A DNA stretch of 64,000 bases, taken from Escherichia coli. Its GTDB lineage: Bacteria > Pseudomonadota > Gammaproteobacteria > Enterobacterales > Enterobacteriaceae. The stretch lies in NCBI RefSeq assembly GCF_045037415.1, contig NZ_CP173438.1. One strand, 5' to 3'. The position numbers are program-made. Shown here piece by piece: positions 24,701 through 27,700 of this stretch (positions are counted from its first letter, which is position 1; every line of letters begins with the position of its first letter).

Positions 24701-27700
24701 TAAAAATCATCAAACTCAAAAAAAAACCGCTAGTATATTCTGAATATTCCGAATAGTTACGTAGATGAAAATACTTGTCACCACCGCTACTTAATTCCGG
24801 TGGGAAATTATTTATTTCCGCATAATCAGCTATGTATTATTTAAAACAATTAGTTTGTAAATAATATAAATTGATAACATATCAAATACATCAAAAATAC
24901 CATTCACAGGCATTATTAATATAGACATCAATATAGCAACATCAAATTCCAATTAGTAATAAGATATGCTTTTAAATTGCATGCAAATAATTTTAAATGA
25001 GCGTTTTTTGATACTTTAGAGTGTTTCCCACCATTTAATATCACTGTGTAGAGTTGATATCACTACAACAGAAACATGCATGTCATTTGTTTACTTCTCT
25101 TTTTACTACAGAAAAATTTATCTATTTTTCTAAGCATCAGTGAAATACTCATAAAGGTAACTATTATGTCTATGCCATTAAGCAATGCCCTTCAGAGTTA
25201 AATTATTACAGATAATCACTTCCTTCATCATCCAAAAGTCGACAGTGAGTTAACACGTAAACATGAACGTGCACGCATGGATACGGAAAATATCTATCTT
25301 CCGCCTCTTGCTCGTGGCAATAACCATAATTACGATGGAAAAAGCGTTGTCGAAATTAGAAAACTTGATATTAGTAAAGAGTCCTGGCCATTTAATTATG
25401 TGACAGAAACATGCAGAGAATTCAATGGTATTACAACAACAGGACGTATGCTCTATCGAAACTTGAAAATCACCTCAGCTTTAGACGAAATATATGGTGG
25501 TATATGTAAAAAGGCGCATGCTGCCACAGAGTTAGCAAAAGGATTACGGCTAAATTTATTTATGAAAGGCCCTTTCGATCCTGTTGAGGACTATACAGTT
25601 CATGAAATAACATTAGGCCCTGGTTGCAATGTTCCTGGTTATGCCGGAACCACGATAGGATATATTTCAACCCTTCCAGCTTCTCAGGCAAAAAGATGGA
25701 CCAATGAGCAGCCAAGGATTGATATCTATATTGATCAGATAATGACGGTAACAGGGGTAGCAAATTCTTCCGGATTCGCCCTTGCCGCATTACTTAATGC
25801 TAATATTGAGTTGGGTAATGACCCAATAATTGGTATAGAAGCCTATCCCGGGTGATGAAAATGCACCACTCAAACGTATGACTCTGCAACCGTCATCTCT
25901 TCCAGAACTGTTTGAATTAAAAAATGGTGAATGGAATTATATTGGTAAATAACTACCAGGAAGAATGAGTACTAACATTCAGGTTATACAGATAGCTAAA
26001 CAATCCCCTGCAATTTACAAAGTAATACTCATTGCGACTTCTTAATTTAAGAAAGCGCAAGGAACGTTTACCCTTGCGCTTATTATAATAAGTCAGGCGT
26101 CGACTTTATCCAGCGGCCATGAATCAAACAGATAGCCATCAAAATAAATATCGTCAACGTTCGAGAATTCCAGCAGACGTTGCTTAACGTTTTCCAGATG
26201 CTGCCACATTGCCAGCTTCGCCGCTCGGGCATCTTTTTTGATTAACGCGGCGAGGATCTGTTTGTGATCGCCCAACCACTCTTTGCGATACAGGCTGTCA
26301 TCCAGATGGCTGTGCAACTGGATCCACATTGGATTGTTTTCCCGCCACTGCCAGGACTGACGGAACAGCTCCACCAGCATGCTGTTATGCGTTGCTTCGG
26401 CAATAGCGAGATGGAACTGCATGTCACCGCTTTCGCTGCTGCCCGGCGCACTGGAAGCCAGTTCACGCTCTTCCAGTTGCAATGCCTGACGCATTTTGAC
26501 GATATCTTCGCGGGTAGCCTGCAGGGCGGCAAACTCGGCGATGTTGCTCTCAAGAAGCTGTCGCGCCTGCAACAGCTCAAAAGGACCCGCATCATTGCAA
26601 ACGTTGGCATCCGGACTGTCTGTGTTGTGGCTGCCTGAGCTATCAAGAACATAGATACCGGCACCCCGGCGCACTTCCACCAGCCCTTTGATCTCCAGCA
26701 TGATCAGCGCTTCACGTACCACCGTCCGCGTGACATCAAGCATTTCTGCAATTTCACGCTCCGGCGGCAACCGTTCGCCAGGATTGTACGGCGTCTTTAT
26801 GATCAGATCGCGGATCATCGCCCCGACTTCCTGGTAAGGTCTTTGCGCAGAGGTGGCAGATTTCATGGTGTTGTGTCCGTTAGGTGCGGTTAATCAAATT
26901 TTTGCCGGATGCGGCGTGAACGCCTTATCCGGCCTACAACGGGCAATTTTACGGCACCCGTTAATCTCAAACTATACCATTAGCACTGGAAGTTGGCACG
27001 TACAGGTGGGCAAAAAAACGAAAACTGGTCAACCAAATATCAGTTTGATTGACCAGTAAGTCTGTAGGGTAATCAGTTAGTTACAGCGCAGCCACACACT
27101 CGCGCGCACCGCGTTCGCACAGCTGCTGATATGCCGCCGTCACCGCGCCAACAAAGTCGGCATTCTGCGGCAGATCATCGGCAAAAATACCGCTCAGGCC
27201 CAGCAGCGCTTTCACGCGGTCTGCGCCCTGATACTGCGCGTTAATCTTCTGGAACTCGGCCAGCATCGGGTCGACCACGTCAATGGCATTACCCTGCTCA
27301 TCCACGCCCTGGGTGTAACGCATCCAGCCAGCCACGCCCAGCGCCAGGTGACGCCAGCTGCCGCCGTTTTGCAGGTGCAGACGCACCGGATCCAGCAGAC
27401 GCTGCGGTAACTTCTGGCTGCCGTCCATCGCAATCTGCCAGGTACGGTGACGCAGAGACGGGTTGCTGAAACGCTCGATCAGCAGCGTCGCATAGGCGTT
27501 CAGGTCCGTACCTTCCGGCATCGACAGCGTTGGCGCTTGTTCCTGCATCATCAGGGCAAAGGCCGCTTTGCGATAATCCGGGTTAGTCATGGTGTCGGCA
27601 ATAGTTTCATAGCCGCCGAGGTAACCGAGGTATGCCAGGAAAGAGTGGCTGCCGTTCAGCATACGCAGCTTCATCATTTCGAACGGCACAACGTCTGCAA

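Follow-up and report, generated by a model that had tools for sequence, protein, structure and literature searches.

A 44-bp deletion and an early nonsense codon very probably leave yjiC a non-functional remnant in an Escherichia coli ST131 background

We are confident that positions 25166–25952 of the E. coli sequence analyzed here (a single 64,000-nucleotide stretch of contig NZ_CP173438.1, hereafter the window) are a non-functional remnant of yjiC disabled by two lesions, a nonsense codon and a 44-bp deletion, of which the deletion probably came first. The initial annotation had proposed a decaying yjiC with a premature stop and a change of frame, and both lesions were recovered when we aligned the window to the intact 276-aa yjiC of K-12. 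Genome comparison identified the strain background of the window as E. coli O25b:H4-ST131. Positions 24000–26900 occur exactly (100% identity) in the ST131 reference strain EC958, and over 25 kb the window matches one O25b:H4-ST131 genome at 100% identity; EC958, JJ1886, and other ST131 strains match 92% of that 25-kb length, again at 100% identity. The remnant comprises the following features.

25166–25952, plus strand: yjiC pseudogene from original start codon to original stop, collinear with K-12 yjiC (831 nt, 276 aa)
25154–25168, plus strand: original ribosome binding site AAGG (25154–25157) and start codon ATG (25166–25168), read directly from the sequence
25199–25201, plus strand: nonsense TAA at codon 12, which is CAA (Gln12) in K-12 and in strain SK1144
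25277–25855, plus strand: residual 192-aa ORF between the lesions, from Met38 to the TGA created by the frameshift; not the intact gene
25844–25851, plus strand: the one copy of the direct repeat TATCCCGG left in the window, at the junction where 44 bp were deleted
25853–25855, plus strand: TGA brought into frame by the deletion
25848–25952, plus strand: out-of-frame C-terminal coding remnant, 34 codons and the original TAA, whose translation is the K-12 YjiC C-terminus

In K-12, yjiC (b4325, WP_000062552.1) is uninterrupted over 831 nt, which settles an early doubt that the reference gene might share the broken structure, and its 276-aa product matches Pfam DUF2686 (PF10887, the YjfZ/YjiC family) over profile positions 1–285 (549 bits, E = 1.8e-165). 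An intact 831-nt CDS also lies between ytiC and uxuR in K-12 DH1 and other strains. The K-12 and window copies share their start and stop codons and the gene order hypT-iraD-idlP-ytiD-ytiC-yjiC-uxuR-uxuB, and apart from the deletion their 3′ 480 bp are identical. Whereas the K-12 gene is intact, the window copy departs from it by the TAA at codon 12, the 44-bp deletion, and ∼26 substitutions that cluster within the first ∼400 bp, and is otherwise collinear. Divergence from K-12 is ∼6.6% in the first 400 bp (25166–25560) and, bar the deletion, approximately nil in the last 390 bp (25561–25952).

The ATG at 25166, originally described as having a reasonable ribosome binding site, aligns to the annotated K-12 start and lies 8 nt downstream of the AAGG; the A-run upstream of this site is 1 bp shorter than in K-12. 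Translation of 25166–25204 gives MSMPLSNALQS*I, in agreement with the first reading of a TAA after 11 codons (MSMPLSNALQS*), and the alignment attributes this stop to a C-to-T change that converts Gln12 from CAA to TAA. The change of frame that had been placed near 25850 is present, and its nature is now defined: it is a deletion of 44 bp relative to K-12, with the junction at 25843/25844, a position that is ambiguous within the retained repeat copy. Since 44 is not a multiple of three, the deletion shifts the frame and the TGA at 25853–25855 ends the ORF. Codons 227–241 are removed, the frame shifts after codon 229, and the last 47 residues are lost. Reading does continue in another frame, as had been seen, with 25848–25952 translating as PGDENAPLKRMTLQPSSLPELFELKNGEWNYIGK*, the same as the K-12 YjiC C-terminus. 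The original stop is the TAA at 25950–25952, so the gene ends 3 nt before the coordinate first given for it (25955).

In the intact allele, direct repeats flank the segment that was deleted. K-12 carries TATCCCGG twice, 44 nt apart, each copy forming the 3′ end of one unit of an imperfect 24-nt repeat (18/24 identical), and exactly one copy is left at the junction in the window. Judging from this repeat geometry, replication slippage or short-homology recombination between the two copies would be the most likely origin of the deletion.

The remnant lies in an AT-rich islet between iraD and uxuR (28–42% GC in 400-nt windows); its own GC content is 39%, versus 49% for the whole window. The K-12 yjiC/iraD intergenic region has been described as an H-NS-bound “promoter island” (PMC3661553). 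The neighboring features are listed below.

23198–24109, plus strand: hypT
24102–24494, minus strand: iraD
alongside the yjiC remnant: the small ORFs idlP, ytiD, and a ytiC-like ORF
24690–24833, minus strand: ytiD, overlapping the ytiC-like ORF and affected by a SNP at 24831
24830–24928, minus strand: ytiC-like ORF, affected by the same SNP
26053–26081, no strand assigned: GC-rich 10-bp hairpin between the convergent yjiC and uxuR, likely a shared terminator and still intact
26093–26866, minus strand: uxuR, convergent with yjiC
27081–28541, minus strand: uxuB

At position 24831 the window has T (plus strand), whereas K-12 and SK1144 have C. The SNP changes Trp28 of the small protein YtiC from TGG to TAG and the start codon of the overlapping ytiD from ATG to ATA, so the small genes of the AT-rich islet also seem damaged in this lineage. 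RNA folding of 26030–26095 gave −20.5 kcal/mol (z = −4.47 versus shuffles), and the hairpin at 26053–26081, which a simple terminator scan missed, likely serves as a terminator for both yjiC and uxuR. The promoter and terminator scan returned no more sites than were found in shuffles, and an Rfam search of 23000–27500 gave no match. Farther downstream, the best-matching ST131 annotations for 26001–51000 include an ISL3-like ISEc53 transposase, fimD, and gntP; a group II intron reverse transcriptase (ltrA) is listed for the single best match alone, which is also the only ST131 match to cover the last ∼1.9 kb of that query.

To place the two lesions among other strains, we surveyed 5426 complete E. 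coli genomes, 4909 of them with the yjiC locus. An exact 60-mer across the deletion junction was present in 813 of the 5426 genomes, and a 58-mer bearing the TAA was present at ≥99% identity in 739. Because of these counts and the identity to EC958, neither chance nor sequencing error accounts for the lesions: both are real, lineage-wide in ST131, and found in many other genomes. Between hypT and uxuR, the five complete-genome carriers that we inspected have a single, near-identical haplotype. In the interval 27714–28808 (uxuB and downstream) the picture is different: the window (ST131) differs at 17 sites from each of the four other deletion carriers that we examined. Those four agree with one another there and are near-identical to the window between hypT and uxuR, a pattern suggesting that a recombination boundary lies within or close to uxuB.

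SK1144 carries the same 44-bp deletion and haplotype as the window, as does the 229-aa protein cluster P0018, but it retains CAA at codon 12, and at the ytiC/ytiD SNP (24831) it has the K-12 base. Only two further coding differences separate it from the window, and its allele seems to represent a less advanced step in this decay. On the basis of this one inspected genome and the counts of 813 versus 739, the deletion probably preceded the stop codon, and the Gln12 stop would then have arisen once the gene had ceased to function.

In HS-02, the GGG run at the junction (window 25849–25851) is GG, giving a 45-bp in-frame deletion, and PGAP calls a 750-nt CDS that starts just past the TAA. This variant reflects either a mutation that restores the frame or an assembly error in the homopolymer. 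The metagenome and Logan contigs L013 and L014 have the 44-bp deletion on other flanking haplotypes, although such contigs can be strain chimeras; the complete genomes closest to L013 (≤98.3% identity) are all intact. The ∼380 bp around the deletion contain almost no informative SNPs. We considered an independent recurrence of the deletion and do not claim it, recurrence and recombination being inseparable here.

The yjiC pseudogene is already flagged in public annotation (RefSeq/PGAP). PGAP records a “DUF2686 family protein, frameshifted” pseudogene in EC958 (EC958_RS29655), FDAARGOS_1255 (I6J85_RS21525), and two further strains, the deletion-only SK1144 allele is likewise recorded as a frameshifted pseudogene, and the same holds for every inspected carrier of the 44-bp deletion. 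EC958_RS29655 and I6J85_RS21525 are identical in sequence to the window, but their annotation mentions the frameshift only and leaves out the upstream TAA; the feature corresponds to 25202–25952 and thus begins just past it. No discussion of the yjiC pseudogene was found in the literature that we searched, in which matches under “YjiC” mostly deal with a Bacillus glycosyltransferase that has the name but is unrelated.

Lesions in other lineages indicate that yjiC is apparently dispensable. Some genomes have a +1 frameshift near codon 34 with a restart at Met38, strain 2018-18.25PC has two IS1 copies in place of yjiC and ytiC/D, S1-IND-01-B has yjiC interrupted by IS1 in its 3′ end, and several truncated YjiC protein clusters exist. 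PS2Canimalfeces12 has IS1 in the yjiC-uxuR spacer, so that IS1 elements occur repeatedly at the locus (three strains). The paralogous gene yjfZ is present in only 2539 of the 5426 complete genomes, and FDAARGOS_1255, which has the window's yjiC allele, does not have it at the K-12 position, located as follows.

6629–7423 of comparison segment L008: K-12 yjfZ

In FDAARGOS_1255 this position (ytfB to rplI) is occupied instead by a ∼10-kb cluster with a TetR regulator, a ketoacyl-ACP reductase, a CoA transferase, an FAD oxidoreductase, an MFS transporter, and a frameshifted hipA adjoining an HTH-domain gene.

As an alternative to neutral decay, positive selection could have favored losing yjiC as a pathoadaptive change in ST131 and other extraintestinal lineages. 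Several independent disruptions across E. coli, the high frequency of the deletion allele (813 of the 4909 locus-bearing genomes), and the missing yjfZ of FDAARGOS_1255 would fit such selection, and there is a phenotype on which it could act: an atypical EPEC strain with a transposon in yjiC is biofilm-deficient (PMC4100040), and in K-12 AZT induces yjiC 11-fold by a LexA-independent route, together with iraD and idlP (PMC11228462). However, the shared haplotype of the five inspected carriers means that clonal expansion and hitch-hiking, helped by heavy sampling of clinical clones, could explain the frequency, and neutral loss is common among accessory genes of AT-rich islets bound by H-NS (PMC3661553). 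We therefore regard selected loss as unlikely and retain the reading of 25166–25952 as a lineage-wide decayed gene.

What the lesions remove can be judged from intact YjiC. The gene is restricted to Escherichia and Shigella, and when 1.84 billion representative proteins were searched exhaustively with the HMM, only 35 matched, all of 29–166 aa and none full-length; an NCBIfam search matched no family. YjfZ, at 37% identity, is the only paralog, and since a search for its homologues gave just 5 clusters, the alignment could not be deepened. The deleted residues Y227–V241 include P228, H234, G238, Y239, and V241, which are invariant across YjiC variants in a comparison that took in E. albertii-like sequences at 62% identity. 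Between alleles, dN/dS was 0.23–0.30 for codons 131–276 and 0.7–1.9 for codons 1–130, both from small counts, and the N-terminal part of yjiC either evolves fast or has recombined. Given the conserved residues that are lost, we infer that the window's yjiC would no longer function.

A structural model points in the same direction, with moderate confidence. An initial AlphaFold run on nine close YjiC sequences was unusable (mean pLDDT of 34.5), whereas the alignment with YjfZ added gave a mean pLDDT of 58.7, with values of 70–90 for residues 160–276 and a low-confidence prediction for the N-terminal 58 residues. In a Foldseek search of the PDB, 50 of the 50 matches listed were GNAT acyl-CoA N-acyltransferases, and the model of intact YjiC has the features of a GNAT fold at moderate confidence. 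We consider it probable that intact YjiC adopts a divergent form of this fold. Profile comparisons did not detect the relationship: Pfam gave no acetyltransferase match for YjiC at E≤1 (DUF2686 only), hhalign of DUF2686 against the RimI (GNAT) profile gave 0.2% probability with both profiles shallow, and a profile search of PDB sequences returned only a marginal GH3 match (E = 0.18). YjiC differs from the GNAT families (for example TacT/AtaT toxins, SpeG, RimJ, AAC(6')) in showing no sequence-profile similarity to them, from GNAT enzymes in its extra N-terminal region of ∼130 residues, and from a TacT-type toxin module in that no antitoxin-like gene is adjacent. Mapped onto the YjiC model, the window allele would be without helix 231–236 and the last three strands.

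One could combine these elements into a larger proposal, in which DUF2686 is an Escherichia-specific, highly divergent GNAT acyltransferase, its complete loss in pandemic extraintestinal clones such as ST131 was selected in connection with biofilm or stress, and the 24-nt imperfect repeat is a recurrent deletion hot spot. We think it improbable that all of this holds, and the reading that we prefer is that of a disabled gene remnant.

The residual ORF at 25277–25855 might alternatively encode a functional, shortened YjiC translated from the internal ATG. The ORF is open and matches Pfam DUF2686 strongly (371 bits, E = 5e-111, against a gathering score of 25 bits), and the N-terminal 58 residues of intact YjiC are both predicted at low confidence and fast-evolving, so their loss alone might be tolerated. 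The match, however, covers only positions 46–238 of the 285-position profile, and the orthologue alignment shows that the intact gene is not this ORF. As first reported, the ATG at 25277 opens a long frame (192 aa) with no obvious ribosome binding site; on inspection we found no Shine-Dalgarno-like sequence upstream of it. The last 47 residues are gone, with their invariant positions and from the more constrained half of the protein, the predicted GNAT-like core would be missing its final helix and its final three strands, and PGAP calls the gene a pseudogene. A short functional protein is accordingly very unlikely, and the 192-aa ORF is a mere stretch between two lesions.

The notion that yjiC is truly intact, and that errors of sequencing or assembly produced both the stop codon and the change of frame, draws on the GGG run at the junction, where HS-02 differs by one G and homopolymer miscalls are possible, but it can be set aside given the independent assembly of the 813 and 739 genomes with the junction 60-mer and the TAA 58-mer, the identity of 24000–26900 to EC958, and a repeat-bounded 44-bp deletion that is atypical of sequencing error. 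We give equally little credence to expression of yjiC by recoding (stop readthrough plus programmed frameshifting) or by a reversible, phase-variable switch: the downstream frame does still encode the original C-terminus without further stops, but recent events explain this (two further coding differences between SK1144 and the window), intact orthologues are a single ORF shifted only by a lineage-specific deletion, the lost 44 bp encode conserved residues that recoding could not restore, deletion between repeats is irreversible, and the TAA at codon 12 adds a second lesion independent of the first.

The yjiC remnant is thus an ordinary lineage-wide pseudogene in an AT-rich accessory islet and carries little weight on its own. 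In practical terms, annotation should give 25166–25952 as a two-lesion yjiC pseudogene, not as a 192-aa gene. The locus also bears on a published assay (PMC11057252), as the qPCR and Sanger primers for an “E. coli-specific YjfZ” marker match yjiC and not K-12 yjfZ (b4204), which makes allele variation at yjiC relevant to it. The qPCR site corresponds to window 25437–25550, with exact matches for the forward primer and probe and 2 mismatches for the reverse primer at 25529–25550, and the Sanger amplicon (25174–25901) would span the 44-bp deletion. For the biology of the lineage, ST131-type strains probably have no working DUF2686 protein and would offer natural knock-outs in which to follow the reported links of yjiC to biofilm formation and DNA damage. 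For the family, labelled “unknown function,” the predicted GNAT fold may provide a first testable idea.
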